Shown one piece after another: positions 8,360-50,122 of a stretch of 64,000 nt of DNA. The DNA lies in assembly GCA_030265395.1 (NCBI GenBank), contig JARFYF010000036.1, forward strand, positions 15,597,299 through 15,661,298, in the 5' to 3' direction. Both the position numbers and the translations under genes were made by a program. Origin of the DNA: Rhina ancylostomus. Lineage: Eukaryota. Positions within the stretch are counted from its first letter, which is position 1. Every line of letters begins with the position of its first letter. The notes under the pieces are model-generated. The model was not told the origin of the DNA. It worked only from the letters and a program-made list of their open reading frames with translations, and ran no database searches.

Positions 8360-8722
8360 AGCAAAACACTGCAGATGTTGTAAATCCAAAACAAAAATCA
8401 AAAATGTGGAAAGAACTCAGTAGGTCAGGCAGAATCTGTGGGGTGAGTCAACATTTCAGGTCAATCACACTTCATCAGACTGGAAAATTGAAGAGACAAC
8501 TGTGTAACAAGTTGCAGAAAGAGGAAGGGGTGGACAATTCCGGCCTGTATCCTTTCACAGACGTTCATTCTGTTCTCTCTACCCCTTCCCCTTTCTGCAG
8601 CTGTACAAACACTTGTTCTCTCACTTTTCCAGTTCTGATGAAGAGAGATTGACATGAAATGATGACTATTTCTTGCTCTATGGATGTTGCCTGTTCAATT
8701 TTTCCAATATTTTTGTTTCTCG
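8360..8722. repeat. Palindromic Penelope-terminus-like element, copy A
   Basis: Arms ctggaaaattgaagagacaac..gcagaaagaggaagggg and ccccttcccctttctgcag..ttctctcacttttccag; CTGATGA..GAAA cores at 8454-8478 (-) and 8635-8659 (+). Confidence 0.8.
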
Positions 8723-9506
8723 TCGCCCTTTAAAGAAGTGCGGGCCAGTTTTAACAGCAACTTCTGAAGCATGTAGCCAATAACACTGTATCTGGATAGC
8801 ATAAACAAGGAAGTGAGCAGTGAGAAATATCTGTATGTTACTGAATGGATAATGGTGAATTATGCATCACATTCCACAGCCATTTACAGGAGAGCTATTG
8901 AATATAACCACCTGCCCCCATTCAACCTTGCCAACTAAACTATTCTGTACATCAGCAAATGTAATACATTGAAACAATGGAGATTATTCATACAGAATAT
9001 TATAAATGGGAGGGTGAAATGCACAAAGATAGCATCAGATTTTTTTTCATTCTGTTGATTGTATTCTGTCTATTTTAATATTTTTGCTATAAAATTTCTT
9101 ATACTTGAGAGGCTCTGGCAGAACTAAAGGTTGCTATATTGAATGTTGAAATAGACAAAATGGCATTGTGTCACTAAATTTAGTCAGGTTAATCTGGTGT
9201 CTGATCCACTGTAGATCAAAAAAAGTCTTTTGTATCTTGTTTCCCTACTAAATTTCTTTTTAGCCCCATTTATAATTTTAATCTGAACTAGTGCCGAGTC
9301 AGAGATTTTATTATCAGCTTATTTTTACTGTAGGCTTGAGGAGATCCCTGCCCCTATTTTCTTATGTTGTTCTTGAAGTAACTAGCTCAGGCTTGAGAAC
9401 ATCAGGATGTTATTTGAAAGGTAGCAAAATATGGTTACCACCATCTGGTAGCCAATTCCAATGTCATAAGCTTGCCTAATAATAACCTGTTGTTTCTTTC
9501 TTTCAG

Positions 9507-10533
9507 AGGCAGAAAATGTTGCTGCTTCTCACAAGGGCATTGTTCCTCCTTCTGGGATCAGTTTCCCAACTATGGATGTCTCCCAGTATGGATCTCAATC
9601 ATGTAGCTCAATGGCATCTGCAATGTTAGCTGGAGAACACATGAGTGAATATGGCCAAGTGGACAACAGAGAGTTCAAATACTACCTGGAAGCTGCAAAG
9701 CCAAATGTATCATCTAGTGTAGAAAGCCCAAGAATTGAGATCACACCATCACCTGGACTGTTTCATGTAGCTCCACATGTAGCTAGCTGTGGCGAACAAA
9801 CATATCATTCTCCCACAGCAGTTCCTAGAGTTACTTTACCTGTGCCAGGTTCTGAAAACATTGTATACAGGGACCCAAACAGTCCAGCTAGTAGTGCCTC
9901 ATCAACAAGTTGGCAATCAGTTGTGTCTCATGAGTCGAGTTCCCATTATGGCATTTCACCTCAGACCTCACCAATAACATCTCCGTGTGTCTCACCAAAA
10001 AATGGCTCAGAAGAATATCAAGGTCAGGGTGTTCACCATTCTCCAAGAACATCCCCTGTCAACTCACCCTCAACTCACAGTGAAAACTGGCAGAATACAA
10101 GGTCACCATCCCCAACACCCCGACCTTCCTCAAGGTCATCATCACCTTGTGGAAAGAGAAGATATTCCTGTGACCGCTCCAGAACTCCTTCTCCACAGGC
10201 TTCACCAAGAGTCATTGCAAGAGATGAACCCGGTTTGCACCAATTTTCAAATTCTGCAAGTCTTGCAGATGCAATGAGCACACTCACCACTGATTCCAAC
10301 AATGACCTGGGTGAAATGCTTCCTGTAAAGGCTCGTATCATGGATCTTACTCCGCCATCCTCCCTTAAAACTGACATGTGTAAAGGAGAAAAACTTACCA
10401 GCCTTACCACGCTGAATTATGCTGAGTTTTCAGGGCCCTGTCAGGATTTGAAGAAAGATGTTTATGGTGTTGACCCGCTTTTTCTGATGCCTCCTCATCC
10501 TTTCCAGTGGACAAAACCCAAACCTACATGCAC
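9507..10533 (+). CDS. NFATC2: NFATC2 large regulatory-domain exon (exon 2 equivalent)
   Basis: Acceptor tttctttctttcag|AG at 9506/9507 and donor AC|gtgagt at 10533/10534. Open frame contains PRIEIT calcineurin-docking motif (9728-9745), serine-rich SPASSASSTS, SPxxSPxxSP repeats and KRRYS NLS (10154-10168). YLEAAKP resembles NFATC2 FLSAAKP. Confidence 0.93.
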
Positions 10534-11949
10534 GTGAGTATTGTTTCATTTTCCATTCTGACATCAAAATCAAATAAAAAGGAATATTTCACTTTAATTG
10601 GCTTCAATTAAAGCCCCAACAACTGTGGAAGAATTTTATTGATCCTTCATTGGAATCTTATCACAATGTCTCTTCTACCAACGTACTGATTCAGTTCATA
10701 AATCCATTAAAAATTAGAATATGCATTGATAACAATGCCAGTATCCCAACAAATTGAAGAGAAAGGCTCAGAGTTTAAACATGGAGTTGTGTAGGGAAAT
10801 TGACATTCAATTATTTGCTGGCATATGCAGTTAAAGTAATGAAATTAAAGACTTACTAAACCAGATATTAGTTTTAGTTTCCTAATTTAAGCCAGTAATA
10901 GATAATAAAAGTACTTCTTGGCTTGCTGTAACCAACTGGTCTCCTCAAGTTCTTTACATTGGTGGCAAATTGATCAAATTGGACACTGTGACACATCATC
11001 CTTTGGTAACCAAGTCATGGCATCAAGTCAGTGGGTAATAATGCAAAGATCACGGAATCATAGAGTCATAGAACAGTACAGCACAATACAGAGCCTTCAG
11101 CCCATAATGTTGGCCGTGTGAAGTTCATTGTGCTAACCTTAAAAATCCCTGCCTGGATTTGGTGGCAAGAGTACTAATCCACAGTAATTGTTACAGGTTA
11201 TATTTTTTTTATTATTCGGATTGCAGATGGTAAAATGTTAAAATTATGCTAATTTTACCAAACAATTTCAAGCAGGTAAAACTGCTCTATTTAACTGGAG
11301 TGATGGTAGAAATGACAGAAATTGTTATTGGAATACCATCTCACAAATAAGGATCACTCATTGCAATTCCAGATTCTGATAAGATTGTGACTTGTACAGT
11401 AGTTAGATATGGAACAGAGAGGTGGAAGCCAATGAATTTAAGCTTGTTCTTTATTATAATTACCAAAAGGTTGGCAATAAGTTAGGCACAATGAAACTCT
11501 AGTTCAAGGATTTAGTTTTCCAAAGGTGCTTTGATTGCATGTTTCACTGAATTTTACAGAATTTAACAGCTTAAAAAATATTTGAATCGTGTTAAGGTTG
11601 TTTAGTTTATAGATTTAAATATATGCCTTTTTGGGAGTTGTTATGTTTTAGTTTTCTTAAATGTTGTATTTAAAATCTAAGGATTCTCTTTGAAGGAGGA
11701 TGAAATAGCATACAGTGACATCAGTTATTTCCAAAATATTCCACCCATGCAACACTTCGTTCAGCAGTATCTTCTTTCACAATATAAATGCAGATTTCCA
11801 GTAAAAATACACAACCTGTTCATTTTTCATGTCTCGTGTATTTTAATTGATATTGTCCCTTGATTCCTCACAGTTATGACTCATCCTAGGTATCCATGCA
11901 GATGTATTAAAGTGCTGCAATGTTTGGCATTTTGGGCACAATATTTGTC

Positions 11950-15181: not shown

Positions 15182-15344
15182 CATTCCTCCTCTGCCACCT
15201 CTGGAGTGGCAGCTGCCAAGTGTATCGGGACAATACAAATTGCAAATTGAGATACAGCCTAAACCTCACCATCGAGCACACTATGAAACAGAAGGAAGCC
15301 GTGGCGCAGTTAAGGCTCCCAGTGGTGGTCATCCTGTGGTCCAG
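15182..15344 (+). CDS. NFATC2: NFATC2 exon, start of Rel homology domain ([12 protein letters not shown]...[26 protein letters not shown])
   Basis: ttttcttacag| acceptor and CAG|gtaatg donor; phase 2 in (AC+C), phase 0 out; [11 protein letters not shown]-recognition loop. Confidence 0.97.
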
Positions 15345-15869: not shown

Positions 15870-16442
15870 AAGTTAGGCCACATCTGGAGTATTACATTCA
15901 GTTCTGGTTGCCCCATTATAGGAAGGATGTGGAGGCTTTGGAGAGGGTGCAGAAGAGGTTTACCAAGATGCTGCCTGGATTAGANNNNNNNNNNNNNNNN
16001 NNNNNNNNNNNNNNNNNNNNNNNNNNNNNNNNNNNNNNNNNNNNNNNNNNNNNNNNNNNNNNNNNNNNNNNNNNNNNNNNNNNNNNNNNNNNNNNNNNNN
16101 NNNNNNNNNNNNNNNNNNNNNNNNNNNNNNNNNNNNNNNNNNNNNNNNNNNNNNNNNNNNNNNNNNNNNNNNNNNNNNNNNNNNNNNNNNNNNNNNNNNN
16201 NNNNNNNNNNNNNNNNNNNNNNNNNNNNNNNNNNNNNNNNNNNNNNNNNNNNNNNNNNNNNNNNNNNNNNNNNNNNNNNNNNNNNNNNNNNNNNNNNNNN
16301 NNNNNNNNNNNNNNGGATATGGACATTGTGTAGGCAGAAGGGATTAGTTTAGTTGGGCATTTTATTACTAATGTAATTGGTTTGGCACAACATTGTGAGC
16401 TGAAGGGCCTGTTCCTGCGCTGTACTGTTCTATGTTCCATGA
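15870..16442 (+). mobile_element. CR1 LINE 3' end spanning an N gap
   Basis: PHYRKDVEALERVQKRFTKMLPGL and tail gaagggcctgttcctgcgctgtactgttctatgttc. Confidence 0.9.
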
Positions 16443-16444
16443 TA

Positions 16445-16630
16445 CATGAAATGCTGGAAATACTCTGCTGATCAGATAGCATATGTGGAGAAGAGAAGCA
16501 GAATGATTACTTCATCTGGATGTAAGAACTAGGAATTGTTATAAATAAACAGGTTTTAAATTACTGAGGACAGTGGAGTGGAGGAGAGAACAAAAGGGAA
16601 ATTCCAAGAACGGGAGTAAATTGGATAAAA
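16445..16630 (-). repeat. Single arm of the Penelope-terminus-like element
   Basis: aaatgctggaaatactc..cagatagcatatgtggagaagag resembles left arms of the palindromic copies. Confidence 0.55.
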
Positions 16631-16639
16631 GGGGTGTTA

Positions 16640-17570
16640 GTTTAATTTGGGAAACTGGACATTAACAAAGGGGCACTGCACGTACGCATTCAAAACGGTG
16701 CCATTTGGGGCTGAGACTGGGGATGCAGGGAGAGAGAGCTGGCAGTTCTCGGCTGAGTCGGGTACTCTGATTGTGTCGTCCGACTGGAATCAGGGAAGCG
16801 ATAGTGGAGGGATCGGGGAGAGCAGTGAGCTGGGCTAGATTGGTGATCAGGCCAGCTACAGAGTGGTTTGGGGAACAGAGATGAATTTGATTAGGTTGTT
16901 GATCAGCTAGTGGTAAGCAGCTAGTAGTGGTCAGGGATGGTGGGGTGTGCAGTGCATCGGATTGGGTTTGTGATCCAAATCTGGGACTGCTGGGACACAG
17001 TGGTGGTTGGGGCAGAGGGGTAGGAGGACCAGGGTCTGGGGTCCGGTTGATGATCAGGTAGGTAGCCATTTTGGGAAATAGGGAAACAATCAGCATCCAG
17101 TTTTGGGTCAACTTGGTGATCAAGTAAACAGGTATCTTGCAGGTGGGTGGGATCAGGACTGGGGACTAGTATTAGGTTAGCTTTGGTGATCAGGTGTGGA
17201 TGGAGATCAGGATCTCCATAAAAGGCCTTGGGAGATTGCTGAGTTGTGGGTAAGAAGATGGTTATGTGTGGGGAGTCAGGACCTGAGTTGATTGCAGGTT
17301 TTGGAGCAGATTGGTGGCTTTGGGGACTGGGTTCTGGGCTGGGCTGGTCAACAGTTTAGAGGAGTGATAATAGATAGGTCAGTACCAGGGCAGGGGTGTT
17401 GAAGGTTAAACGTTTAGTGTGGGGCTACCTTCATAGGATCCAAGTGCAGTGTTGCACTATGAAAGTCGAGTTGACCAGTGGGTGCCTACAATGATCTAAA
17501 TTTGATACCCCAGACATGAAAAATTATGTCTGGGAATGCCCGGGAGAATTTCAGGAGTGACCTGAAATTA
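16640..17570. repeat. G-skewed low-complexity element ending in two 9-bp hairpins
   Basis: Recurrent gggatc/gatcag units; stems cccagacat/atgtctggg (17509-17534) and aatttcagg/cctgaaatt (17547-17569). Confidence 0.5.
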
Positions 17571-17614
17571 GTCATTATTGCATTTTAGTTGGCTGCAAGC
17601 ACATCTTTCAATTG

Positions 17615-18240
17615 TCATAGTGTCAAACAGCAGAGAAACAGGCCCTTTAGCCCACCATGTCCATGTCAGCTGTCAAGTACCTATCTGTACTAAACCCCTT
17701 TACCAGCGCTTGGTCTGTAGCCTACAATGCCTTGGTGATTCAAGTGCTAGTGGGATGCTTTTTAAATATTGTGAGAGTACCTGCCTCCACCTCCTTCTTT
17801 GGTAATGTTTTCCAGATTGCAAACACTCTCTGGGTTAGATTCTTACATAGATCCCCTCAAAACTTCTTACTCCTCATCTTAAGCCGATTCCTCTGGTCCT
17901 AGATGCCTCTGCCAGTTTCTTACTATCTACCCTATCTATATCTCTCAGAATTTTGTATGTCTTGTCAAGTCTCCTGTCAGCCTCTTCAGCTTCAAGGAAA
18001 ACAAACTCAGTCTATCCGACTGAAACGCTCCATCCCTGGCAACATCCTGGTGAATCTTCTCTGCGTCTTCTCCAGTACAATCACGTCTTTTCTGTAGTGT
18101 GGGAATCAGAACTGCGCACAATATTCTAGCTGTAACCTAACCAATGTTTTATAAAGTCACACCTGAATTTTCCTGCTATTATACTCTTATGAAGACAAGT
18201 ATCCCATATGCCTTCTTCATCACCCTATCTACCTGCACTG
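17615..18240 (-). mobile_element. CR1 LINE 3' end
   Basis: catccctggcaacatcctggtgaatcttctctgc..tctccagtacaatcacgtc (reverse ERVQRRFTRMLPG) plus reversed tail. Confidence 0.85.
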
Positions 18241-18244
18241 TCAC

Positions 18245-18540
18245 TGAAATGAATGTGCTGCACAATCCTCATGCCCTCATTCTGTGGCAGCCCATTGTGC
18301 AATCTGCAAACCAAAGGGCGACTGTGATACATGAGGTTGTCCAGGGATCACATGACCTGTTACTTTGAGTGCAATTCACACATACTTGAATGACAAACAC
18401 ACAGTGAAAGGCTACCACACATAATGCTGACTGGACCACTGTGGAGGACACCAGCAGCGTTTGTCAGAGTGAGTCATGATTAGTGACAGTCTGTTGCATT
18501 GTGTGCTACCTGACAGGAACTTGCTGCATAGCCTAGAGAC
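18245..18540 (+). mobile_element. Possible third Harbinger transposase fragment
   Basis: Weak matches only (HNADWTTVEDT resembling YN.AH..TR..VE.T; VCCIV). Confidence 0.35.
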
Positions 18541-20764
18541 CATTGATTTTAGCCGCTGAACAATGCTATAATATTCTTCTTCCATTAGCAAAATGTTCTG
18601 ATGTTTCTATGGCATCTCCATTACCTGGATTTCTATAGTATTTGGTTGCCCTTTCATGTTTTTTTTTGCTTGTGGGCTGCACATGAGCTGGGTTCACATC
18701 CTTCGACTGCAGTCTGTGGTTTCTTCATCTTGCTGCGTCTTCCTCTTTTTTTTTGGTTCTGGTCAGAAGTCACAACCTTCTGCAAACACAAGGCATGTAT
18801 AATCTTAAACAAACCAGCATTGATTTTAAGCAACTGAAAACAATGTTATCGCAATTAGCTCTTAAAGCCTTTTTTAAAAATAATATTCAATGTGTATGAG
18901 GATTATTACTGAATTACTTCTGAAACACTTCAGTCTGAGATATGAAAATGGGTGGCAACAGAAGTATTGTATTTCCTGGTAAAGTGATGGTGTTATAGTG
19001 TAGTGTGCACATACTTGCATTTGTGAAATGTAGTGGTCAGGGGAAGAGGAGGTAAGATCACGTGTGAAACAGGAAGTCGTCAGTGAAGGGATGAGGAAAC
19101 AAAACTAGAAGCGTTCAAGGTGAAAAGGATTTGTGAATGTAGACACACAGAATGATAAGTAGAGGTGTCAAAGAATGGAATTTGAAAATAAATAATGATC
19201 TTCTGACTTCTTTTTACCATTTTCTGTTGTTAATAACAATGAAGAAAAATCAGCATAGGATGTATCATAAAAACATGACAAAGTTTGGTTTGTGTTGATA
19301 ATTCAGCAAAACAATCATATCATTATAACAAATAGCCATAACAAATTAAATACATTTTTCATCACAAAATGGTATCAAGTATCTTTGCAGTGTTCTTAAC
19401 ATTCTAAAGTGCTTCACAGGTAAAAATTGATCCTGAACTTGGAGCAGATGCCCAAAAATGCTTGGTTAATGATAGTGTCTTGAAGAGGGACAATGTAGTA
19501 GATAGTTTGGGGAACAAAGTTCAGGGCTTGGGGCCTAAATGGCTGAAGGGATGCTAGGGAGCAATGCTTAATTCCTCAGTCTTTTTGGAATCCGCAATAA
19601 TTTGACTCAAAGCTAAGTGCCCTGGAACTCAGCTAAGGCGGCACTGAGAAACAAATTTGGAAGCAGTCACAACAATTTTTGGTGTTTATCCCAGCAGACA
19701 AAGAAAATCTTTACACATGCTTTCCATCAATTCCTTCAGTGCAAGGAATAATGGAAGAAACAACTGAGGAAGTATTTTATTTATATATTGTTAGCTTTAC
19801 ATATACTTTTGCACCCTTTCTTCTGTTCTTTCTCTGCCCCCAACGTTAATATTCCCCTTTTAGCCATGTCAGCAATGTTGGAAACAGATACCTTATGTAG
19901 TGCCACCCTCCTCAGTGACATCATAAAATGCAAACATCTGCCCTGCGGGTCCCAGTTCTCTGACTTCAGCTTTGTAAATCAGCATAAATTTGGCTATGCT
20001 TGGATATAATTTTATCCCATCAATGAAAAGGCTAAAACTGTCTCAGATATGAAAGAAGAAGCAAATGCTGTACATTTTTGCCAGTCTCTAAGTCTTCATG
20101 AGCTTTTGTGTTTTGTTTCTTAAGCATTAGTAAAACTGCTGTGCTTTGTGATCTAAATGTTGCATGCAAGTCAATACTTCTGACTTAGTCTTTTAATAAA
20201 AGAACATCACAGCAAATCACATCATAGTTTACTGAATGTTTAACTCCTTTGTTTTCTATAATGCCATTTTCTTCTCATAATAGCTGCTCTAGCCTGTCTT
20301 GCATTTATCTCTCTCATGATTACTTTTTTAAAATTTAGAACTCTATGTTTTTCTTGACTTTCCGTTTCTAGCTTTTATAATCTGTTAATTCTGTAAAGTT
20401 TGCAGCCCACACATTGCCAGAAACGTAGATGGTAAATAGGATGCGCCATTAGGCCCAAAATCATTCGAAGTGTGGGTTGTGCCGATGTCATTGGCAAGAA
20501 ATGAGAGTTGCCTAAAAGGTGGAAATTTTTTGTCACTTGGCGCTGGGACTTTGAAATTGCTGTAAAATATGATTAACCCCGTCAGAACTGAAATTCCTGC
20601 AAACATCACTGCAACCTATGCATTTCTTTGATTAGATATCTGCAGAGTTTGTCATAAAATTGCAAGCTGATTTTGTTTTAGCTCAACAATTCCATTCCGC
20701 CCTCCCCACCTAAGCTTGGTGATTCATTTTGGAATGTAAGTTCCCTTACTGCTCCTTAAGTAAA

Positions 20765-20960
20765 GACAGAGAATGCTGGAGATACTCAGCAGGTCAGGTG
20801 GTATCTGTGGAGAAAGAAAAAGAGTCAACATTTCAGGCTGATGGCCTTTCAACAGAATTTACTTGAAACATTAACTCTGCTCAGATCCGTTTGACCTACT
20901 GAGTGCTTCCAGCATGTTCTGCTTTTATTTCAGATTTCCATTCTCAGCAGTTTATTGCTT
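20765..20960. repeat. Palindromic Penelope-terminus-like element, copy B
   Basis: gaatgctggagatactcagcaggtcag..gagtcaacatttcag versus tgaaacattaactc..tgacctactgagtgcttccagcat. Confidence 0.8.
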
Positions 20961-23900
20961 TTCACCTCCCTGAGTTTTGCTTTATTCCTGTAGCAGTTTA
21001 ACAATATGTGTTAGCAGCAGGTTTTGTCATGGTGGGGAGAAAGCCAAGGCCATCCATGGCCTCATTTGAGGTACGTTTGTACTTTCCTGCTGGAGTCCTA
21101 GTCACAGCAAATGAACAGCAGGAACCTGGGATAGAACAATGTAGCACTCAGCTAAAATTACTCATTTCACATTTTCTAGTTCTTGAAAGTAGAAATGAAA
21201 TTACTGCACCTTTCCTCACATTTGGATTAGTTCACTATGAATTGTTTAAAACGATCTTACTGATGAACTAGAATAATTGATGACACCAGAAAAAACAGCC
21301 AAAGAAAACTGCATTTTTTTATACAACATGTACATTTTGTAAGTCATTTCTTCCTCTTCCTTTTGTTTGGCTCTTGATCTCTATGCCTGTCAGACAAATC
21401 AGAACTATGACCTCCTCCAAAAACTCACTATAACCACTTTGAAACCACCTGCTTGGGAGTATGGAAGACTGATCCCAAAACAGTGACTCCCATAAGTTTT
21501 GCATCTGGCTTCCACTTAGTGGTTTCTAGCAGGGTCCCAACAACATTTAGGAAGTCATCCCTGGAGTGATTTTATGTATCATTACAGGTGACGTAAATGT
21601 AATTTGGCTCCCTCATAATCCGCATTAGGATATTTTAAAAGGATCTTTTTATTATTCTAAGACTGAATTCAGAGTCAAAATCAGAGCGATTCAAGCAGCA
21701 AAAACCTCATTATCTCTCTGTTCCACAGTCGCCTTTCACTAACAAAGTTTAATGAAAGAATAACTTGTTTCACAAAAAGTCAGACACAAAGCTAGGGACT
21801 ATTATCCTTGGATTTCATGAAATATGATAGGAAGTTATTTTTGGCTCATTGGTAAAGGTGAGGCCAAATACCTTTTGTTGAGTTCATATTTTTGTCCCAT
21901 GGAATTAATTTATTCAAAGGGCATTCTTAGACACATGCCATTGGAAAATGGCTCCTTTAAAGCTGTGTGAATATTATCACCAATGTTAGGTTTGTGTTAC
22001 AGAAACCACACACACCAGATTCTCGCAAATAATAGGCCATGAAGAACAGAGGAATGTGACAGAAACCCCAGCCCATAGACCAGCTTAAATAGCTAACTAT
22101 AACATACTCACTGTTTTAAGAAATATAATAAAAAAGGCTCCTGAGGAGCCCTGGTTATTTTAAGTAGAAGTTGATTGAGACCCAATGATAAACAAACCCT
22201 GATAATCTTAATGTAGAGCCACTTAGATGATGTCAGATCAAACATTTCACAGGAATGCAGATTGGCCCATATTTCCTGTGCCCACTTTATAAAAGAGTTA
22301 TCCAGCCCCCTGCTCACTTCCCATAGTTTTTTTATCAAATTACTTATGTAATTTCCTTTGTCGATTATGTGTCATCATCCTTTCAAGCATTGCATTGCAG
22401 ATCACAACCAAACACCTCATAAGAATAATCTGTTGAGCTCACCTTTAATGTTTCTGTGCCATTTACCATTTTTGCTACTCTGTGATAAAGCATGAAAGAT
22501 TCCTGAAAGGACTGAAGCTAGAAACTGTGGCTTGTAGGTATAGGTACACTATATCATCATGGTCATTGCACAAAGTATCAATGACTATTGTCTGCTGCTG
22601 AAAGCTTTGGTAGTACCTGTCATATTACACTTTCTCACTCATGAAAATGTATTGTCCAAGATTAAGGCTAAGTCTGTTGAGTGCCATTGCTGTCACTGTT
22701 GGGCTGGCAATGGGTTAGGTGCCAAGAGATCAGGTCGGTAATCAGAATCAAGGTATTTGGAATGATAGGTTGGGGAGGGAGTGGAATTTTGGGAAATGAC
22801 ACCTCCATTGAGGGGACCGGATGACAAGGATCTTGTGAAATTTGAGGAGGAGGATACTGGTGGAATTTGACTGTTGGGAATCGGGCTATTAGGTACTTGA
22901 GGCATTGGAGTGGTCTAGCCTTGGCCAATTGGGGGGAATATCAGAGAATGACGTTGAAGATTTGGTTCCATACAGGGGTTATTGAAGATTGAGAATAGAA
23001 GGTAAATAGTCAGTGATATGTTTCACTCTGTCCAAAGTTAATTTTCAATCATGTATCATTAAAATAAATAGCACTGCACTATCTGATTTATAGCCCCTTG
23101 TCTGATTAACCAGAAGATATTGGCACTGGTGATGAATCATAGCTCAGTACTGTCACATCTCTCAAATCCATCTGTATTTTAGAAAGAACATTTTGCTTTG
23201 GCATAACTTTGATTATTTCAACTTCGTTGCTCTGATGAAGGATTCAAAGTTACAGTTTACAAGACAGATTTCCTTTTTTATTACTGCAGTTTAACTAGTT
23301 CCAATGTTATAGCTATACTGCTGAATCTTGTAAGGGCCAAGAACAAAAATGGTTTAAAACTCCGCATTTGTATAGATGTACCATATACAGTGAAGCAGCT
23401 CTTAGTAATATAGTTCTCCTGAAGTTCACATGCCCACATCATTATATTCTGCTGGGTAGTACTTTGCAAGTCAGTTTCTCCCCAACCTCTTGTGAACAGT
23501 GCCAGCTCCACCTTCATATCTTCCCATATAAATGGAAGAACTTCACCAGATGTTTTAATTTGAGTGATTGGATGAACTACCAACATGTACTACGATTAGT
23601 AGGAGGATTTAGCAATTGAAGAGCAGGATTAATCCACAGACCCATTTAGCCTGAGCTGGAATTAAAGGCAAAAAGATATTAAATCTTTTAATGCTGAATA
23701 AGAATTATATGATTGTTAGATCTTTAAATTAAGAACTGATCATACTTTATTTTTAATAATTGCAAACTACAGTACTGACATTGTTCAGATATTGGACTTG
23801 AGAATTCAAAGGACACTGATGCTTTTATCTCAATTTCCACATTGTATCTATCACACAGAGATATTCAGCAATGTAATTATTCAAGAGCAATGCAGCATGT

Positions 23901-24039
23901 GATTTTAAACTCAGTCCTAAAGTATTATACATTTGTTTTTTACCATGATGAAGTTCCCTGGAGAGGAACAGAAATCAACAGTAGCAGATAAAAATAAATG
24001 TAGCTCTTTTGCAAGTTATTTGCATCATGTTTTTACATT

Positions 24040-24245
24040 GCTAAGGCAACACCCACACAAACCTAACTGTAGTAATGTGTTCAATTCTGGACACTGCATA
24101 TTAGAAAAGGAGTTGAAAGCTTTGGAGTGGATACTATAAGAGATAAAGAGATTTACTACAATGTTTCCAGCCTTGGGTAGACAGGAAAAAGCGGGGATAT
24201 TCTCCTTAGAAGAGAGAAGGCACAGAGGAGGTTTGACAGAAAGAA
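24040..24245 (+). mobile_element. Old CR1 fragment
   Basis: CVQFWTLH/ALEWI-type CR1 ORF2 C-terminal remnants; likely tail at ~24775-24935. Confidence 0.6.
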
Positions 24246-24249
24246 AAGG

Positions 24250-24662
24250 CTTGGATTTATGTTGCATCTTTTACAATTGCAGAATGTTCCATGGCACATG
24301 AAAGCCAATCATAATCATAGCCAATGAAATGTTTATGAAGTGTAGTTGCTGTTGTAATAGAGGAAATTTAGTAAGCAATTTGTTCACAGCAAACTTGTAC
24401 AAATGGAAACATGATAATTATCAGATGATCTCTTTTAATAATGTTGATTAGGGACAAATATTGGCCAGAATGCTGGGAATAGTTCCCCAAGCTTCTTCAA
24501 AAAAATTACCATGAGGTAATTAATCTTCACTCAATAGAGCAGAGAGCAAGTGGGGTCTGAGTTTATTATTTAATCTGAAAGTCAATGTGTTCAGTTTATG
24601 CGTGGGGCTTGAGCCCACAACCTTCCAATTCAGAAGCAAGAATGCTACCAGCTGAACTATGA
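24250..24662 (-). mobile_element. Near full-length SacSINE1/DeuSINE-like SINE
   Basis: Reversed tRNA head gggcttgagcccacaaccttccaattcagaagcaagaatgctaccagctga, Deu core atgttgattagggacaaatattggccag, tail gaagtgtagttgctgttgtaat. Confidence 0.8.
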
Positions 24663-26423
24663 GTGACAGCAGTGTTTATAAACTGAGTACATAAAGAGAA
24701 ATTTGTTTTCAATGACTGAATTTCCATAAAATTATTGGGTAAGAAAATAGGCAACGTCTTTTTAACACTAGTGTAAGGTTCAGGAGTAGCTTTCAAAGGG
24801 GATTTGGAAAACTGCTTGAAGGACAAGTTGCCAGGTATGGCTGAAGAGGCAGGAGTAGGATCAGATGATTTGAAGAGCCAGTACAGAATCAATGAGTTGA
24901 ATGACCTCCTCCTCTGGTGTACTAGTTTCTGACTATATTTAATTTGAACTATTGTGTAATTATTGTCTGGATTCAACTAACATTGATGTCATTTTAATTA
25001 GAAGTTTGGGTGATAAAAGCCAATAATTTACTTGATGGCATACTGTACTGCTGTAAGAATGACTTAAAGATAAATACTTTTGGAAAATGCGTACAATGGT
25101 ATAATTAAAGTTTGCACATTCAGAGGGAGTCAATAATTGTAAATGTAGAATTAATTAATGTTCAACTTTGCAATTAAAACACACAAGTGAAGCAGTAAGT
25201 TTTAACGTGTGTCAGATTTATAATGCCATTTGTATAAAAAGCAAGACATTTAGTCTGCAGATCTCTGAAAAAGGCAGCTTGATGGTTCTTTGTAAGAGGA
25301 TGTGCAAATTTGATTGGTCACATGGATATCTTTGATGTCTTTGGACAATTGTGCACAATTCTGGTGAATGTTTTCATGCTGAACACTCAGGCCTTTCTCA
25401 CTGTTTTCCAATAAACAAAATTAACCAAGTCTTAGGAATGAAGCTGCACAGAGATATCCTTTTAGTGATGGTGCAGAAAATGATCAAGGCATAAGTCTTT
25501 TTCTCTGCTCAATTTAACTAGATGTGCAAATGAAATATGAGGAAAGCTTCTGGTGGTGTGTTTTTGTTTATAACAGCCACTTCTGCTCATTCACTTTCTA
25601 CTCATAAAATGGTCTGTGGACATTCCTGGGGTACTTGTGGACTCGGCCGCAAATTCCACTGGATGAGCCTGGATCAGCAGATCCAATTCCACATTGGTAT
25701 CTGCAGCTGCACACAGGCAGTGATTCCATTGTGGGCCCCAGAGTAAAAAAAATACAAATGCCTGCTGATGCCAGAAGCATTGATTTTCATTGGCGTGAGT
25801 GAAAATCAGAGAGAAGAAAATTCCCTCATGTACAGATGAACCAGTTTCTTACTCCTTTCTTAGAATTGCAGGTTGCTAGCTTGTGTTTATCCTTTCTTTT
25901 TGGGACCTTCCTTAGAAGCTGCTTACAATGGTAGAGTTTGAACTTCTAGGTGGTGTACATTAGCTTTAATTAAGGCTTGTTGATTTCAAACTTGTGTATT
26001 CAGTCTCAATTCTTGTTGCCTCACTTAAATAAATTTCTTATCTTTACATCATCTGTACTTCCTCATCTCATAAAAGTCTGGATCATGTTTCTCTAAATCT
26101 TGTTCTCTCCACTGGAAACAGGTGCAACATTTCAAATTTCTCTTTATAACTGGCACCTTTATGTTTCACAATTGACCTAGTTCCTCTTCCCTGAACAAAT
26201 CCCTTCTCAAGCAGGTCAGTCACTGAACTNNNNNNNNNNNNNNNNNNNNTTTCTTTGATATTCACACTAGTAACCAAATTCATTTTGTTAAGTCCAGGGT
26301 AAAAACAACAGTTATATTTCTGGATAGCAAAAAAGGGGAGATTTGTATGAGTAGGCCTTTGGGCAATGGTATTTACAATTTTTTACAAGCTGTTGAATTT
26401 CTGTTTTTTTAAAGGAGGGATTA

Positions 26424-33734: not shown

Positions 33735-35600
33735 GCAGGATCATAGAATTGTTATGCCACAGAAGGCAATCATTTGGCCCATTGATTCTTCGACCAGCTC
33801 CTGGAAGAGCAAAACCACCAGAACCACACACTAGCACTTTTTCTCTCTTATGTGCCTATCTAATTCTCTTCTGAAAGTCCTAACTGATTCTGTTTCCACC
33901 ACCCCTATAGGTTGTGTGTTCTAGGCAGTGAATATTAGGGCAGTATTGAATCATAGAAGATTTGCAACACAGAAAAAGGCTATTTGGCCCATCAAGCTTA
34001 TTTTAGCAGGCCTAATCCCACCTTTCCATTGTACTCATTGGTCTTTGACCTATCAGCTACAGGGAACACATTACTTTTATTTCTCCTATCTGAACCTGTT
34101 ATGATCTTGTATATCAAATCTCTCAACCCTAGTTTTTCTGGTCTAACCTTAATCCCTGAATCCCTCTTCCCTGGAGTCCTTCTGCTAAATCTTGTCTGCT
34201 TTCTTTCTTGACTCTTCACGTCCTTCCTAGGATGACCAGAAATGGACTCAATGCTCCACTTTGTGGCCTAATTAGTGTTCTATATACTCTCTGATCTTGC
34301 ATTCTATTTCTCTATTTGTAAATCACAGGATTCACAAGTAGATGGTGGCAGCACAAATAGGGATGGTGAAGAACGCAAATGGTTTAGTAGCCTTCATTAG
34401 CTAGGGCATAGAATATATAGGCAGTTGGCTGTGGTACAACTCTATAAAACATTGGTTAGGCCACAACTGTATGCAGTTTTGGTCACCACACTCTAAGAAG
34501 GACATAATTGCACAGGAGAGGGTGTAGTGGTGACTTACCAGGATGTTGCCTGGGATGAGGAAAGACTGGAGAGACTCAGTTTGTTTCCCTTAGGGAGGAT
34601 GAGGCTGAAAGTTGATCCAATTGAAGTGTACAAAATTTTGAGGGGTATAGACAAGGTAGATAGAAGGAAACTTTTCCCTGTAATAAAGATGTCAAAAACC
34701 AGTTGGCAGAGGTTGAGGGCAAGAGGGAAGAGGTTTCGAGGGGATCTAAGTCAGAGTTCTTTTTGCCCAGAGGGTAGTTGGAATCTGGAATGCCTTGCCT
34801 GAGTGGATGGTGAAAGGGGGAATTTTCACAGCATTTAAGAAGTATCTGGATGGGCACTTAAATAACAAAGGCACAGAAATCTATGGACCAAGTGCTGGTA
34901 ATTGGGATTAATTTTTATGGGTAATTGATGGTCAGCTTGGTTGTATTGAGCTGAAGGGCACGTTTCTCTGCTGTGTAACTCTGACTCAATGTTTCCAAAT
35001 GCTTACTAGCCACTCTTGCCATCCCCTGCTGTTTTCAAATTTAGGCACAAATACACCTAGGCCCCTTTGTTACTGCACACCATTTAGAACTGTGCTATTT
35101 AGTCCATATTGTCTCTACTAACTGTTTCTGCCAAAGAGTATCATGTCTCAATTCTCTGGTTCAAATTCTGGCAATTATCTGCTCATTCTGTCAGCCTAAC
35201 TATGTCACCTTATAGTCTATCACTATCCCCAATGTTTACTACACTTTCAAGTTCTGTGTCCTCTGTAGAGTTGGTGATTTTACCCTGGATACCCATGTCT
35301 AAGTCAAAAATGTACATCAAAATAAGCAGTGGCCCCAGCTCCTACCCCTGAGGAACATTAATATCTATCATTCTCTGTATTTGAAAAATAACTGCCCATT
35401 ACTCTCCATTCTGTTTTGTTAAACCAATTTCCTAATCACGCTACCACTTTAATTTCATGGTCCTCAATTTTGCTCAGCATTTTGTAGCGACCTTGTCTAC
35501 TGAAAATCCACATAATCTACTGCATTCCATCCATCAATCTTCTTTGTAGCTTGATCAAAAAATTTAATCAGGTTAGTCCAATATGATTTTGTTTATGCTT
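33735..35600 (-). mobile_element. Minus-strand CR1 fragments split by a plus-strand CR1
   Basis: Minus ORF LGLRDLIYKIITGSDRRNKSNVFPVADRSKT; resumes after 34990 with reversed RT region. Confidence 0.7.
34335..34990 (+). mobile_element. CR1 LINE 3' end
   Basis: EERLERLSLFPLGRMRLKVDPIEVYKILRGIDKVDRRKLFP and tail gaagggcacgtttctctgctgtgtaactctgactc. Confidence 0.9.
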
Positions 35601-38050: not shown

Positions 38051-38562
38051 TATTTCCATGGTCTATGTGCCCTCTGCTCACTCCTTTTTTTCCATGCTAT
38101 ATTCCAAAGGGAATCCATATTTATGCTTCCAAGTCTGGCTGCAACTGGATTGTGCAAAAGCCTTGAGACATGCAAGGGTCCTTCAGTATTTGCTACAACA
38201 ATCCCTGGAGCTTTTAATAACATGGAACAACTTTTGAAACTCTCAAAAGTTTGACTAATAGCCAGCAGAAATAAACCAGCAAATCTCCTAAACTTAAGAG
38301 AAAATACTAGCCCAGTGCAGGACCAGGTCAATGGTCTGAACACTAATGCATTTACCACTTTATGTTCTGGTGTGATGCACAGTGTAGATGCCACTTGGTT
38401 GCCAAAAAATGAACACATGTTTCCAATTTCTCATTTGTTTATCTTGCCAAATTTTGATACAGTCATTTTGTTAGTCCTTTCATTTGAAATGACCACCCGG
38501 ATCATTTGGATCCCAGCAAGATGTAACCCTAAGTATCTTGTCCGGGATTTAGAATTTCTTCA

Positions 38563-38662
38563 CAGTTCTGGTGAAGGATCTTTGACCAGAAACTTTAATT
38601 TTTTCTCTTTCCATTGATGTGCTTGACGTGCTGTTTCCTGCATTTTCTGTTTTTTATTTTGG
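38563..38662 (+). repeat. Single arm of the Penelope-terminus-like element
   Basis: cagttctggtgaaggatctttgaccagaaac..ctttccattgatg..tttcctgcattttctgtttttta. Confidence 0.6.
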
Positions 38663-41204
38663 AATAGCTTTGTGAATGTGGGTTCAGAAAGTATACATTC
38701 GTGACACTAAAGCTGATCCCAGATTTTATAAAATCTGGTGTCAATGTAAATGAGATTGATATGTCACCAGCTTTGTTTGCATCGTTATTTTTGGTTAACC
38801 TTGACTGAGAAAGTCAATCTTAACAAAAGAAGCTTTCTTCAACAAGGAGGTTATTTTTAGCCGTGTTGAGGTCCTGTCTGTAAAAGAGGAAGTACCTATT
38901 TGGTCTTCAGTATTTCTGTGCATTATGAGTAATGCACAGGAGGCTGGATTTGTAAAGTGACAAGCTCAGTCATTGAACTTAACAAAGTTAAGTTCATTTT
39001 GCTTGCTGCCTCATGCCATTACAGATTGCTATATTTAGTACATTCCACTCACCTATAGTAATTAATTGATGTAATCTTGTGAAAGTATATCTGTTATAAC
39101 AAGCAAATGGATTCCTAAGTGGTCAAATTTACATCCATAAGAGTTACTATTGTTAGAGTCATTACACATTACACTACACTCCTCCCCTTCCCCAGCAATT
39201 CTGACAAGTTGTCACAAGCAAAAAAAGATGCTGGCAGATTGATGCATCCCAGCAGGGAAAGATTGTTGATGGCTGTAAGTTTTTATTTGTTAAAATGTTC
39301 CTGAATATTGACCTTTTCAGATGTCTGGAAACTTACCTGAGTGATAATCTTGAAGTTTGAGCATAGATGGTGACTTGTTCGTATTTCAGCATTTTTTGGT
39401 TGATATTTATACACATATACTTTCCTGCAGAAATCACTGGTAATTAGGAACAGGAACTTAAGAGTTTTTTTGAAATTCTGGGTTGGGGGTGGCGGTGGTG
39501 GGATTGGACTGGTCCTGAATTTGAACCTGGAAATTATGGCATCTGATTCACCGCTAATGAATTTCCTATCCCTGAAATAGATCAACAAATAACAAGAGTA
39601 AATCAAATAAATCAACAAATAACAAAAGCAAAGCAAACCAAGATTACAAATCTCTCATCTAAAAATTAGTTAGAAAATATCATTTGTACCCTTTTATATG
39701 CTTATGCACACAAAGGGTCGGATTTTGGACATGTTTTGAAGTATTTGTGCTTATTTCCTGTTGAAGTCCCATCCATTGGGATTTAGACCGGGCATTTCCT
39801 GTCATATTAATGTCATATTAATGTCATATTTCTGTCAGTATTAATGTCTTTCCTCAACTTATTCCTTGCATGCAATGGCACCATAAAACATGCAGTGCCC
39901 ATTAATTACTTACCAATCGAAATTGGATCAAAAGCTTGCATCTTACAATTAACTCAGTTGAACAGGGAGCACATCATGCTGATAATAGCAAACTTTATTT
40001 GATTTAAAGTGTTCCCCCAGAATATCATATTTATGCGTTAAGGTTCATTCCATATAATCGTAACTCAGAAAACTTTGCTGCCACCAGCCCTTGGTGCAGG
40101 TCACGGCTGAACCGCAGCCTGTAGCCGTCTCAATCTGCAGCCCCAGTGGCTGCCACTGATCATGGGGATTGAAGATTGCCCACAGCTGGAGGGCACCATC
40201 ATTCCACTTCATGGATGGCGGGGAGGGAGCGTCTAACCCACAGACCCATGCTCCAATATCTCCACTCAACGCCATAGCCATGTTCCCATCCCCCAGTTAT
40301 TGGTATTTCTGCCTCCTCTTCCCCACCCGATCTCAAGCTGCCACGGAGAGCTCACTCTGACTTCCCATTTTCCATTGCTACTGACTGCTTAAGGTTTTAA
40401 CACTTCNNNNNNNNNNNNNNNNNNNNNNNNNNNNNNNNNNNNNNNNNNNNNNNNNNNNNNNNNNNNNNNNNNNNNNNNNNNNNNNNNNNNNNNNNNNNNN
40501 NNNNNNTGCTACTGACTGCTTAAGGTTTTAACACTTCTTAATGTGAGTAAACCATAATAACATTTCCTTAAAGCAAGGATGTCCTAATGTTGAAATCAGG
40601 CTCACCTGTTGTAAGAATCTTATACTAAAGGATTCTATGCCTCCCATAAACTCGGCTTTTTATTTCCACAGATGAAGCTCTGTCAATTGTTCAGATTGAC
40701 ATTGTTCATGAGATGTTTAGTCAGCCTCCCAACTAAAAGTTTGTCATGCTTGTTCTGGTTGTATAACTGTTTAGCAATACGTCCAAGCACTTTAAACTTT
40801 TTGAGACTCAGAATGGACAGTAATATTTTCTTCTGGTTAAAGCTGAATCTTTTTCCTCAAAATGTTCAATGAACCATTCAGTTTATAGTGCTTTTCATTC
40901 TCAGGGCTTGGGTATCACTTACACAGTTGCATTTATTATCTAACTCCCAGTCAAACTGCGACAGGCTACTTTTGAGGGCAGTTAAGTCTGGGGGATTTTC
41001 GTCGCCAGACTACAAAAGGGTGGCAAATTTCCAAGAGGATATGAGTGAATCAGTTGGGTTTTTATGGCAGTTCAACAACTTAATGGTCATGTTTCACTGA
41101 TTCCAGCTTTATTTGCAGTTTTTGAACCGAATTTAAATTCTCTCTTGTCAAGTAGCCTTGAATTATGTCTTGTTTAGTAATGAGGTACTTTTTTTATATA
41201 ATAG

Positions 41205-41377
41205 GATTGATTGTGCTGGAATATTGAAGCTGAGAAATGCTGATATCGAGCTGAGGAAAGGAGAGACGGACATTGGCAGGAAGAACACCAGAGTGAGGCT
41301 GGTTTTTCGAGTGCACATTCCTCAGCCCAGTGGCAGGACTGTCTCACTGCAGGTTGCTTCTAATCCCATTGAATGCT
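41205..41377 (+). CDS. NFATC2: NFATC2 RHD exon ([37 protein letters not shown]...SNPIEC)
   Basis: ataatag| acceptor and T|gtaagt donor, 173 bp, phases match neighbours; NADIEL is the NFATC2 variant (NSDIEL in NFATC1/3/4). Confidence 0.97.
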
Positions 41378-41769
41378 GTAAGTTTTCTATGGCATTTAAA
41401 TATGTACTGTATGTCTTGTCAGGTACATAAGTGTTTATTAGAATAAATTGTGACTATTTTATTCAATGTTGGAAAGAAATAGTCAATTCACTATTCAAGT
41501 CAAAATTAGCCATTCCTAACACTGATTATATTTCCCAGAATTTACTCAAGTTGTGCCATTGAATTCGACCCACACAAACACAAATAGATCTGTTCTCAAA
41601 TGATGACGTGCTTCCAATGATGATAAAACAGAATACAGTGGAGTAGAAATCTGTTCTTGGTCTCATGTACTCAAGACAGGATAAAGTACAGTTTGCACAT
41701 CTTACTCAATTTGCTTTTATTGATTTCAATGTAGCTATGTTGTTTTTGACCCTCTATTTGCAGTGTATT

Positions 41770-45100: not shown

Positions 45101-45161
45101 AGTTTTTAAAATTATCAGCAGATATTTTCTGTAATAACTATATTTCCTTTTATACTTCCAG

Positions 45162-45302
45162 CTCAGCGATCAGCCCATGAGCTACCTATGGTGGAAAAGC
45201 AGAGTACAGACAATTGTTTAGTCACAGGTGGACAGCAAATGATCCTCAATGGTCAAAACTTTACGACTGAGTCAAAGGTGCTTTTCACAGAGAAGACTCC
45301 TG
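45162..45302 (+). CDS. NFATC2: NFATC2 exon, start of IPT/RHR-C domain (SQRSAHELPMVEKQSTDNCLVTGGQQMILNGQNF...EKTP)
   Basis: tatacttccag| acceptor and G|gtgagt donor, 141 bp; SAHELPMVE and GGQQMIL are NFATC2-type. Confidence 0.97.
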
Positions 45303-46034
45303 GTGAGTCATGTTGTTCTTTTTTGAATCTTATTGAAAACAGAGTGAACTGTATCACTGATCAAATTTGAATAGAAGTAAATTGCATTGCTCAATCTTTC
45401 TGCATTTTGTGCTCTGAGATTATTAAGTGAACGATGGTATTCTGTTGATTGTATGTGACCTTGGTTGCATATCACAGCCCATAATCACACAAATACACTG
45501 TTCAGGTATGGGAAAAGTTGTGTGAAGTACAAAACTTTTAGATTCAATTCCTTTTTTCCTCATTTGTTGATGATAAATTATATTGCATTCTTAATATTGC
45601 AACCGACCTGTTATAAATTGGATGGTAGAAATAAGAGCTGTTTGCAAAACCTATCACATTAAGAATGATCTTTTCACACCCCTTCTATGAACATTGTGTT
45701 TCCTGTAGAACTGACAAGATCATTCTTCAGCTGTACTGAAGCAGATTACTATCACTGTTATGCATTTGGATTTTTCTCTGGTACTTTGCTTACACAGGGA
45801 TACCAATATTTCAGTTATAGCTTGAGTGACAAACCTTGCCCAATGGTCCTTCTGCATGAACATGGGACTGGCAACATGAATACCATCACCCATGGATTAT
45901 ATTGGAAAAACATCTCAGAAAAATTTCAAATTTTGGGATTGTGCAATGTTAGCTGTCCTTCATAGATTCAGTTGCTGTTTAAGTTATTATTTCAAACTGA
46001 AATGTATTTAATTACATAAGATATAGGTAAGGCG

Positions 46035-48505: not shown

Positions 48506-49284
48506 TAGATCAAAATGTCTACAGTGAAATATATCAATCATTGAGAATTTTTTGGCTGGTTTTTATTTGACTAAATACCTGGTTTTACAGTAGAAAGCAA
48601 AAGAATCTTTCTTTGCATGACTGATTTGATCTTTTCAGAATATTTGTGCTTGAACTTTGAATCCAGCACTGAGGTTAAAACCAAAATGCATTTTATAGTT
48701 CTTTCCCCACAGTTTCGTCCCTTTGGTTAAATGTTATTGTATGAAAAGGAAGGACTTTGAAGAAAGAAAATAAAACAAGTGTAATCTATTTTGAAAAGTA
48801 AGTTGCAGTACTTCGATCTGACTTTAAAATGCCACTGCTGGAACTGGAAGTAATCTGATATATATTGCACAGTACGTTTCTCATGTATATAGCACTCTCT
48901 GAGACTGGACTTGAACTCAGAGCAGACTGATGCAATGAAGGATTTGCTCTCTTCTGTATGGAGATTCAGGTCATTTCAACCCATTTTCTGGTTAATGTGG
49001 ATCTGAAGCCTCAAATTAAACCTTACACCCAGTGACATCAGAATCTACCACAGGGTTAACATTGCAAAAATGTGATACCCACCTGACCTGCACCCAGTTT
49101 TCAGCACCCAACAAGAAAGTCTACACCCTCTGTGCCCTACAGCCTGAACCACCCACTCCCCAAAACAGATTCATCTTTATCAGGTCTTGTTGCCCATGGT
49201 CACAGCCAATGATCTCAACTCCCTTATGCAGTGGCACCTCATTCACATCAGGTTCAGTCAGGCCTGGAATTCATAGTGGTCGAA

Positions 49285-49725
49285 AAGTCAGAAAGAGTTT
49301 ATTGTCACATGCACAAGTCCATGTGTGCACAGGTGCAATGAAAAACTTATTTGCAGCAACATCACAGGCACATAGCATCAAATAAGCAGCATTCACATGA
49401 AAAACATAAAAGATCCACAACTTTTACAATAAAGAACACAATTAGAATTTTTAAGAAGTCCATTTTAGTGCAAAGTGATCAAAGTAGTCATGGTGTTGCT
49501 GTACTCTAGTGATTAAGGTTGTACCAATTGGTTTAAGAACCAAATGGTTGAAGGGAACTAGCTGTCCTTGAATCTGGTGGCGTGGGACGGGTACCTCCAG
49601 TCCAATGGTAGCTGTGAGAAGATGGCACAGCCCGGATGGTGGGGATCTTTGATGAGAGCAGCACCTCATGTCGATACTACTGATGGTGGGGAGGGATGTG
49701 TCCGTGATGAATTGGGCTGATTCTG
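49285..49725 (-). mobile_element. Rex1/Babar-like LINE 3' end
   Basis: gagtttattgtcacatg reversed tail; gatggttgaagggaa..ctgtccttgaatctggtgg and ggatggtggggatctttgatga. Confidence 0.7.
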
Positions 49726-49939
49726 TGTTGTAGTGATTTCTGTGTTGAAATAGTATTATCCATCTGCAAATGTGAAATATCCTTATGGCCCCTGGCCTGT
49801 GAAAAACTCAATGGGTAAGGTGTAAATAAAATGAGTGTGAATACCATGCTTAATACCCAACTGAATCACGTGTCCACTGAATTCATCATATCATTAGAAA
49901 TGCCACATCTTGCCTGTCCTAGAAATCTGAGATAGACAC

Positions 49940-50122
49940 AGGTAATGCTGGAAACTCTCATCAGGTCAGGTGCATCTATGGAGAGAGTAATCAAGTTAAT
50001 ATTTCAGCTCAATGACCTTTCATCATAATTCCTGAAAAGTTATCAATCTGCAACATTGACTCTGTTTTTCCTCCGTAGAAGCTGCTCGACTTGCTGAGTG
50101 TTTCCAGCACCTTCTGTTTTCA
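49940..50122. repeat. Palindromic Penelope-terminus-like element, copy E
   Basis: tgctggaaactctcatcaggtcaggtgcatctatggag versus ctccgtagaagctgctcgacttgctgagtgtttccagca. Confidence 0.8.

Follow-up and report, generated by a model that had tools for sequence, protein, structure and literature searches.

Palindromes with decayed hammerhead motifs in Rhina ancylostomus are probably old, inverted terminal insertions of a Penelope-like retrotransposon

Five palindromes in a 64,000-nt stretch of Rhina ancylostomus DNA (contig JARFYF010000036.1; hereafter the window) are most probably old, dead-on-arrival, inverted 5'-truncated pLTR insertions of a Penelope-like retrotransposon (PLE), a layout that is already described for these elements. 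Each arm is a copy of a common ~100-nt sequence whose consensus begins with a minimal type I hammerhead, and the paired arms meet 5' end to 5' end. An earlier, sequence-only reading had placed five palindromes and two solo arms in this DNA, and all of them are present where it claimed, giving 12 arms in total (10 paired, 2 solo). A profile search of the window, with a profile made from the same arms that it then recovered, returned exactly these 12 arms (E 1e-28 to 1e-16) and nothing beyond them up to E=1. The predicted folding into long hairpins is likewise borne out, with z = -10.1, -3.6, -11.1, -11.0, and -6.9 for palindromes A to E against dinucleotide shuffles, and 0 of 100–200 shuffles folding as well. 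Identity among arms over the shared body is 51–79%, and paired arms mismatch at about 20–35% of positions. The palindromes are thus real, and their look is that of old, broken copies.

Palindrome A (8360–8723) has the longest arms, with the hammerhead sense on the minus strand in the left arm (8391–8534) and on the plus strand in the right arm (8578–8723). The two are identical at 106/138 aligned positions, are pyrimidine-rich for ~57 nt upstream of the core, and flank an unpaired centre of 43 nt (8535–8577); the junction lies at about -56/-57 relative to the core plus these 43 nt. In palindrome B (20755–20962; junction ~20857), the left arm extends to core position -2 and the right arm begins at +14, while in palindrome D (29203–29428; junction 29324/29326) the left arm begins at +6 and the right arm extends to -5. 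Palindrome E (49921–50122; junction 50028–50033) has a left arm extending to -2 and a right arm starting from +5. Palindrome C (27485–27704; junction about 27608–27612) belongs to a separate subfamily, its arms being 76% alike and on average 59% alike to the other arms. The two solo arms both lack a tail: F (16428–16523, minus strand) ends at about GAAA, and G (38558–38665, plus strand) runs from core position -5 to the short end. The outer end of F adjoins a different high-copy repeat.

The head-to-head orientation proposed from the letters alone holds throughout, the cores reading outward in 5/5 palindromes with unequal inward reach. At the outer ends, an extension of ~30 nt (the tail) is found on one arm only in 4/5 palindromes, namely at about 8360–8392 on the left arm of A, 20927–20962 on the right arm of B, 27485–27523 on the left arm of C, and 29203–29235 on the left arm of D; in E the tail is partial and its side uncertain (best score 20). 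Scored against each other, these four tails give 22–33, none of the 6 pairs falling below the 99th percentile of the null (22), and the four partner arms scored against them give 8–18. The same tail recurs in 1,326–1,948 contig loose ends behind 29424 across four runs. Moreover, 11/12 arms extend past the hammerhead cut site (F is unclear). Palindrome C is bounded by a 14-bp target-site duplication (TSD; left copy 27471–27484, right copy 27705–27718, plus strand; 13/14 identical), a score equalled by 0.27% of 1,500 random zone pairs. At A, B, D, and E the best matches are at chance level, leaving a TSD in 1/5 palindromes, and no empty site occurs among the 15 of 4,922 contig joints listed. PLE insertions need not carry a TSD, and where one occurs its length is moderate and varies.

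MITEs and fold-back DNA transposons are short, palindromic, abundant, and non-coding, and the elements described here, at 180–360 bp, in high copy and without an ORF, share these traits. An ordinary element of this kind, with long terminal inverted repeats (TIRs) resembling or captured from hammerhead-bearing sequence, is nevertheless very improbable given the asymmetric ends with their one-sided tail, the variable centres, the lack of common terminal bases and of TA/TTAA-type flanks at the estimated ends, and a single detected TSD of 14 bp. Conserved hammerhead boxes and both helices lie at the point of arm truncation, as in a reverse-transcribed element. A MITE signature (symmetric TIRs, shared terminal bases, a short TSD of fixed length), which would have counted against the sequence-only reading, is absent at the estimated boundaries.

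The palindromes could alternatively have begun as solo pLTR arms that gained a mirror arm later, by host fold-back repair or a second insertion into the first. Two solo arms do exist, PLEs can target their own pLTR (PMC11167929), and the identities of arms from the same element (0.66–0.79) and from different elements (non-C mean 0.665, range 0.51–0.77) overlap. This sequence of events is still very improbable, since 5/7 loci are palindromes with abutting arms, the tail is one-sided, and C has a single TSD around the whole unit with subfamily features on both of its arms.

A palindrome made at insertion by a PLE is the favoured explanation. In published PLE insertions, an inverted 5'-truncated copy, a one-sided tail of 30–40 bp, a head-to-head layout, and TSDs of 8–10 bp have been reported (PMC8557442; PMC3846280), with the tail sitting between two reverse-transcription start sites and uncleaved RNA serving as the main template (PMC11167929). 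The palindromes resemble the insertion units of endonuclease-positive (EN+) PLEs (Arkhipova et al. 2013, PMC3846280; Craig et al. 2021, PMC8557442; Frangieh et al. 2024, PMC11167929) in their head-to-head inverted terminal copies, the 30-nt extension at one end, copies that cross the hammerhead cut site, and, at C, a TSD exceeding those of MITEs. They differ from them in the trimming of both arms to about 100 nt, which makes the entire insertion a hairpin of 180–360 bp without an ORF. Following published PLE biology, the RT/GIY-YIG protein would nick both target strands, and reverse transcription would begin inside the element at two nearby positions, located about 65 and 95–100 nt downstream of the cut site, which would yield one arm without and one arm with a tail. 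Copying would pass through the uncleaved hammerhead and halt soon after, and the truncated products would become joined in inverted orientation, making the palindrome at insertion; CpG loss and arm mismatch would follow as later decay. The mirror arm may be a product of two priming events, or else of self-priming with an antisense template. In B and D the tail-less arm extends further inward than the tailed arm, as it does in C by eye and probably in A, a polarity expected from antisense-template self-priming and not from two independent priming events. The inward-reach walk itself is unreliable for C, where the profile came from the other subfamily, and short for the left arm of A, where it met a one-base gap; other alignments were used there.

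The centres bear on whether the palindromes were instead copied as units. On a version of the fold-back family that the sequence-only reading suggested, one or a few PLE-derived palindromic masters would be transcribed, and PLE protein would copy them again in trans, the inherited centre then being eroded by small central deletions. Such copying would leave a centre junction common to the copies; of these five old copies, D and E are nearly alike at the centre (their arms end no more than 3 nt and 1 nt apart), and A, B, and C differ. In favour of master units, 4/5 junctions lie between about -5 and +14 relative to the core, solo arm G also begins at -5, abundance is very high, pLTRs have trans activity on unrelated cargo (PMC3846280), and tandem retrozymes have been argued to be non-autonomous PLE derivatives (10.64898/2026.07.22.740005). 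Against them, the arms of A are ~55 nt longer, the second arm of B begins 8–9 nt later, and C belongs to another subfamily, so at least three or four masters would be needed for five copies. Upstream of helix I, the contig loose-end consensus shows a T-run like that of A's upstream arm, which implies that many copies extend past D's junction. Furthermore, two solo arms exist, and a full hairpin transcript would hide single-strand structures. We therefore consider master units unlikely.

The consensus and the individual copies tell different stories about the hammerhead. The family consensus does contain a minimal type I hammerhead, including helix I, a palindromic GAAA-CG-U, and a UH site, laid out as a 4-bp helix I, CUGAUGA, a bulged A, a 5-bp helix II, GAAA, a CpG-decayed CG, and UH. 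From the window alone, helix I came to 2 bp or 4 bp by a 3:3 tie, which was settled with the consensus of contig loose ends before 29348 (CAGTT-CTGATGA-A-GGGTC-TTTG; 612–932 loose ends in each of four runs; column agreement 0.51–0.54), independent of the window arm alignment. This loose-end analysis spanned 16330–30100 only, that is F, B, C, and D and not A, G, or E. The completed window consensus has a helix I of 4 bp, a bulge of 1, and a helix II of 5 bp, and is palindromic at hammerhead positions 15/16. Across the 12 arms, the two bases following GAAA are TG (4), CA (3), TA (3), TT (1), CT (1), and CG (0), which indicates CpG decay.

Among the copies, the claim that the arms carry such cores needs correcting: CUGAUGA and GAAA are both intact in 2/12 arms, those of A (8454–8478 on the minus strand and 8635–8659 on the plus strand), where helix II is broken in each and U16.1 is changed to A in the right arm, and the ten other arms have no intact pair. 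One arm of each of B, C, D, and E ends inside the hammerhead, without all or part of CUGAUGA, and the notion that every transcript would carry a core on either strand holds for A only. The bare motif CTGANGAN{8,30}GAAA is hardly more frequent in the window than chance would give (11 matches vs a mean of 5.8 expected, with 5/100 shuffles reaching 11). A hammerhead descriptor (intact core, helices I and II each of at least 3 bp, UH) gave 0 matches on both window strands, and 0/12 arms satisfy it, contrary to the idea of the copies as ribozymes. The Rfam scan for hammerheads that had been suggested gave no family match in the whole window to E=1 or in two sub-regions to E=10; the sub-threshold matches (2 in the whole window; 15 and 5 of miRNA/snoRNA type in the two sub-regions) are generic hairpin matches. 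In an idealised head-to-head unit, the predicted probabilities of helices I and II fall to 0.0. The existing copies probably have no ribozyme activity, and the long hairpin would be expected to prevail over the hammerhead fold in host pre-mRNA. The consensus hammerhead is expected to cleave weakly as a dimer, after GAAACGUU, little or not at all as a monomer, and not as the hairpin; dimer cleavage of hammerheads has been ascribed to Lunse et al. in a passage of PMC6765202.

With regard to formation, 4/5 centres lie in or beside the 5' half of the hammerhead, within about 20 nt. A tentative idea, which we would not call likely, is that the hammerhead sets both truncation and turn-round, the reverse transcriptase halting or changing templates at the 5' half of a ribozyme that is folded and uncleaved. 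The PLE would then mass-produce stereotyped hairpins of ~200 bp, some perhaps re-copied as units.

The family appears to be very abundant, as the sequence-only reading had supposed. The 62.5 kb of called sequence hold seven loci, and contig depth exceeds that of the flanks by a factor of thousands, although this depth is not a copy number. All 12 arms lie in non-coding DNA, with 0/12 overlapping the coding stretches of an NFATC2-like gene on the plus strand (9470–45310; about 9470–10537, 15190–15344, 30040–30210, 41200–41380, and 45150–45310), whose top protein matches are NFATC2 (E 1.5e-25); the exon limits are approximate, and the first stretch was called by eye. Stable intronic hairpins might have been retained for a host role in NFAT pre-mRNA, as an editing substrate, a small-RNA source, or an influence on splicing, and B, C, D, and F occupy the same place in related organisms (sequencing-run contigs, region 16330–30100). 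However, the flanks are equally shared in those organisms, the arms mismatch at 21–34% of positions, as drift would give, and the Rfam miRNA matches lie far below the gathering score, which makes such a role extremely improbable. It would bear on retention and not on origin.

Among known ribozymes, the consensus most invites comparison with the minimal hammerheads of metazoan PLEs (Cervera and de la Pena 2014, PMC4209133), with which it shares a U-rich lead, a short helix I, CUGANGA, one bulged base, G10.1, helix II, and GAAA-C-G-U-H without helix III. That study also reported pairs of such hammerheads on opposite strands, spaced 100–700 bp apart, as well as numerous single motifs derived from truncated PLEs; no cartilaginous fish is among the rows examined of its Table S1 or Fig. 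S3. Our family departs from these hammerheads in that no single copy is intact and most arms have U at position 11.1. Non-LTR retrozymes (PMC7229834; bioRxiv 10.64898/2026.07.22.740005) are likewise short, non-coding, and PLE-related with a type I hammerhead, and the latter source reports them in one chondrichthyan genome. Their units, each with one core, follow one another head to tail in tandem arrays, whereas the arms here are inverted pairs or solos, and no tandem arrays covering the arms were found in the window. A short-motif scan of the window, with 6 ORFs compared with Pfam, revealed no PLE RT or GIY-YIG domain. Short PLE-like peptide motifs gave 16 scattered matches without a credible PLE frame, one of them at 27622 in the right arm of C, in a frame with stops. 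A 19-nt arm stretch had 0 matches in viral contigs, and its metagenome matches (15/15 without flanking similarity) were set aside as chance; a hammerhead-plus-flank pattern occurred 0 times in prokaryote genomes and in viral contigs. No paper on this palindromic family in sharks or rays was found in the openly accessible literature searched, and the supplement of PMC8557442 contains no shark names and no arm motifs.

Short hairpins of this kind are most likely the stumps of PLEs, although an annotation pipeline could take them for MITEs or microRNA precursors. The model of PLE integration and the influence of the hammerhead on truncation have been called unresolved (PMC8557442; PMC3846280). 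The junctions, tails, and TSDs of so abundant a family could separate two-strand priming from self-priming models and reveal hammerhead-shaped truncation. If the hammerhead does shape truncation, junction counts in one genome would test both how inverted ends form and what part the ribozyme plays.

Five inverted repeats were confirmed where the sequence-only reading had placed them, at 8360–8722 (palindrome A), 20765–20960 (B), 27500–27710 (C), 29205–29430 (D) and 49940–50122 (E). Each folds as a single long hairpin that outperforms every shuffled sequence (fold z = −10.1, −3.6, −11.1, −11.0 and −6.9, respectively). A cross-locus comparison within the window showed that arms of different loci are alike in sequence, and a profile built from the window's own arms matches 12 arms, comprising the ten paired ones and two solo arms at 16428–16523 (F) and 38558–38665 (G), with no further arm in the window to E = 1. 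None of the 12 falls within the coding parts of a + strand NFATC2-like gene (9470–45310), the palindromes being situated between or beside these parts. Palindrome C forms a separate subfamily (own arms 76% alike, mean of 59% to other arms). The seven loci amount to one per 9 kb across the 62,548 called bases of this one window, and ten N runs totaling 1,452 bases (3501–3628, 5579–6042, 15985–16314 and seven shorter) could conceal additional arms. At 40376–40537, an identical 31-nt stretch flanks a 100-N run on both sides, probably an assembly overlap rather than a repeat.

Read in the same orientation, the arms open with the 5′ strand of helix I and continue through CUGAUGA, a single A, 13 nt covering helix II, and GAAA; two bases, U, H, the helix I 3′ strand and a body of ~65 nt follow. 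The dinucleotide after GAAA is TG in 4, CA in 3, TA in 3, TT in 1 and CT in 1 of the 12 arms and CG in none, the pattern left by CpG decay. The window-only consensus is split 3:3 at one base of helix I and for that reason failed the hammerhead descriptor at 3 bp. Contigs of four public sequencing runs were aligned to window positions 16330–30100 at 80% likeness. Contigs extending before 29348 (640, 612, 932 and 800 in the four runs) yield a consensus that ends CCAGTTCTGATGAAGGGTCTTTG and joins ACCTGAA of the window, with a column agreement of 0.51–0.54. With the tied base set by these data, the consensus has a helix I of 4 bp, one bulged base, a helix II of 5 bp and a 15/16 segment that is self-complementary. 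Metazoan minimal hammerheads of Penelope-like elements (PLEs) have the same layout (Cervera and de la Peña 2014, PMC4209133). At the sequence level, the extension consensus is independent support for the predicted hammerhead layout of the arms.

The actual copies are decayed. None of the 12 real arms is an intact hammerhead by the descriptor, no other site on either strand of the window passes it, and the Rfam scan proposed with the sequence-only reading returned no hammerhead for the window or two of its sub-regions. Both boxes (CUGAUGA and GAAA) are retained only in the two arms of A, so that the claim of a core in both arms of each palindrome was overstated. For an idealised unit, fold prediction gives a helix II probability of 0.93 in a single arm vs 0.0 in the head-to-head arrangement.

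In all five units, the 5′ ends are joined and the cores read outward. The left arms of A, C and D and the right arm of B carry a related ~30-nt extension beyond the shared body, with pairwise tail scores of 22–33 (all six pairs reach or exceed 22, the 99th percentile of the null), and their tail-less partners score 8–18 against these tails. The left arm of E reaches 20 at best, which makes a tail on E doubtful, and the same comparison detected no tail in F or G. Since an unrelated pair (left arm of B, right arm of E) also scores 23, isolated tail scores close to 22 do not settle a case. The loose-end consensus behind 29424 is the same ~30-nt extension, found in 1,326–1,948 contigs in the four runs. 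The short end lies 54–66 nt from the predicted cut site and the tail ends another ~30–35 nt away; 11 of 12 arms extend through the cut site (F is doubtful). A 14-bp duplication bounds C (13/14 matching; 0.27% of 1,500 randomly drawn zone pairs score at least as well); candidate target-site duplications (TSDs) at A, B, D and E match at chance level only, and the palindromes' estimated ends show no terminal bases in common. Published accounts describe PLE insertions with an inverted 5′-truncated copy and an often one-ended tail of 30–40 bp (Craig et al. 2021, PMC8557442), and head-to-head as the commonest inverted PLE layout, with TSDs of 8–10 bp and proposed self-priming on an antisense template (Arkhipova et al. 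2013, PMC3846280). According to Frangieh et al. 2024 (PMC11167929), the PLE protein of an anole cleaves both strands and extends them, with two internal start sites bounding the tail and mainly uncleaved RNA as template.

Amplification of the palindromes as a unit would predict a shared centre. Relative to the first core C, the arms reach inward to about −56/−57 in A, −2/+14 in B, about +1/+9 in C (judged by eye), −5/+6 in D and −2/+5 in E. A has 43 additional unpaired central bases, 30 of them pyrimidines, resembling the sense-strand upstream arm. No single junction is shared, and C stands apart as a subfamily; the sequence-only reading overstated the case for amplification as a unit. However, the junctions of D and E nearly coincide, and four of the five junctions map to the hammerhead's 5′ half or next to it, so that partial amplification as a unit may have occurred among these five old copies. 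The tail-less arm reaches further inward in B, D, by eye C, and A if its unpaired centre is counted with the right arm (four of four; one-sided chance 1 in 16). We regard this polarity and the clustering at the hammerhead as a lead.

In one run (X1), summed contig depth in the bins of palindromes B, C and D is 17,613, 19,655 and 69,827 vs about 6–12 in unique bins, with a similar picture in the other three runs; as summed depth is not a copy number, we rate the arm family only as very abundant. Contigs of three related organisms, roughly 2–7% different from the window, span unique flank into palindromes B, C or D or solo arm F (at least 32 records), so these insertions predate the corresponding splits; no empty insertion site was seen among the joints listed. 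A 14-nt stretch at 21039, ~80 nt right of palindrome B, is present in these organisms and missing in the window and X1.

Several other features accompany the arms. At 16390–16440, F adjoins one end of another repeat, which has a very high copy number (summed depth ~103,000 in X1) and is related, inverted, to 17627–17660; either F or this repeat probably inserted at the end of the other. The tract at 16660–17360 is G-rich on the + strand (GC skew 0.28 in 16001–18000), with two proline-rich open frames on the − strand and near single-copy contig depth, and is possibly low-complexity. A 30-nt A-rich unit stands in two tandem copies at 39575–39637. A second repeat occurs in both orientations (59959–60407, 61221–61679, 15872–15984, 6107–6192, 34468–34557 and 62327–63183), two direct copies lying 1,261 nt apart; its reading frames are broken, two of them without a Pfam match, and presumably resemble CR1-type LINE ends.

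Searches of viral-contig, metagenome and prokaryote-genome collections for arm-related sequence gave nothing or chance matches. Our literature search found no paper on this palindromic family, which Repbase and Dfam, outside that search, may well contain. The available parts of a whale shark preprint (10.1101/443036) report expanded intronic Penelope-like elements, and those of a retrozyme preprint (10.64898/2026.07.22.740005) tandem retrozymes in one chondrichthyan, neither describing palindromes there. PLEs are defined by an ORF for RT plus GIY-YIG linked to the repeat; the probable PLE membership of this family is based on the layout of the ribozyme, the orientation of the arms, the tail and a single TSD. 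The earlier proposal was correct in placing the arms head-to-head and in deriving them from PLE-type ends. In conclusion, the family is real and abundant, and, judged from its sequence, would consist of decayed, inverted, 5′-truncated PLE-type terminal repeats carrying a fossil minimal hammerhead.
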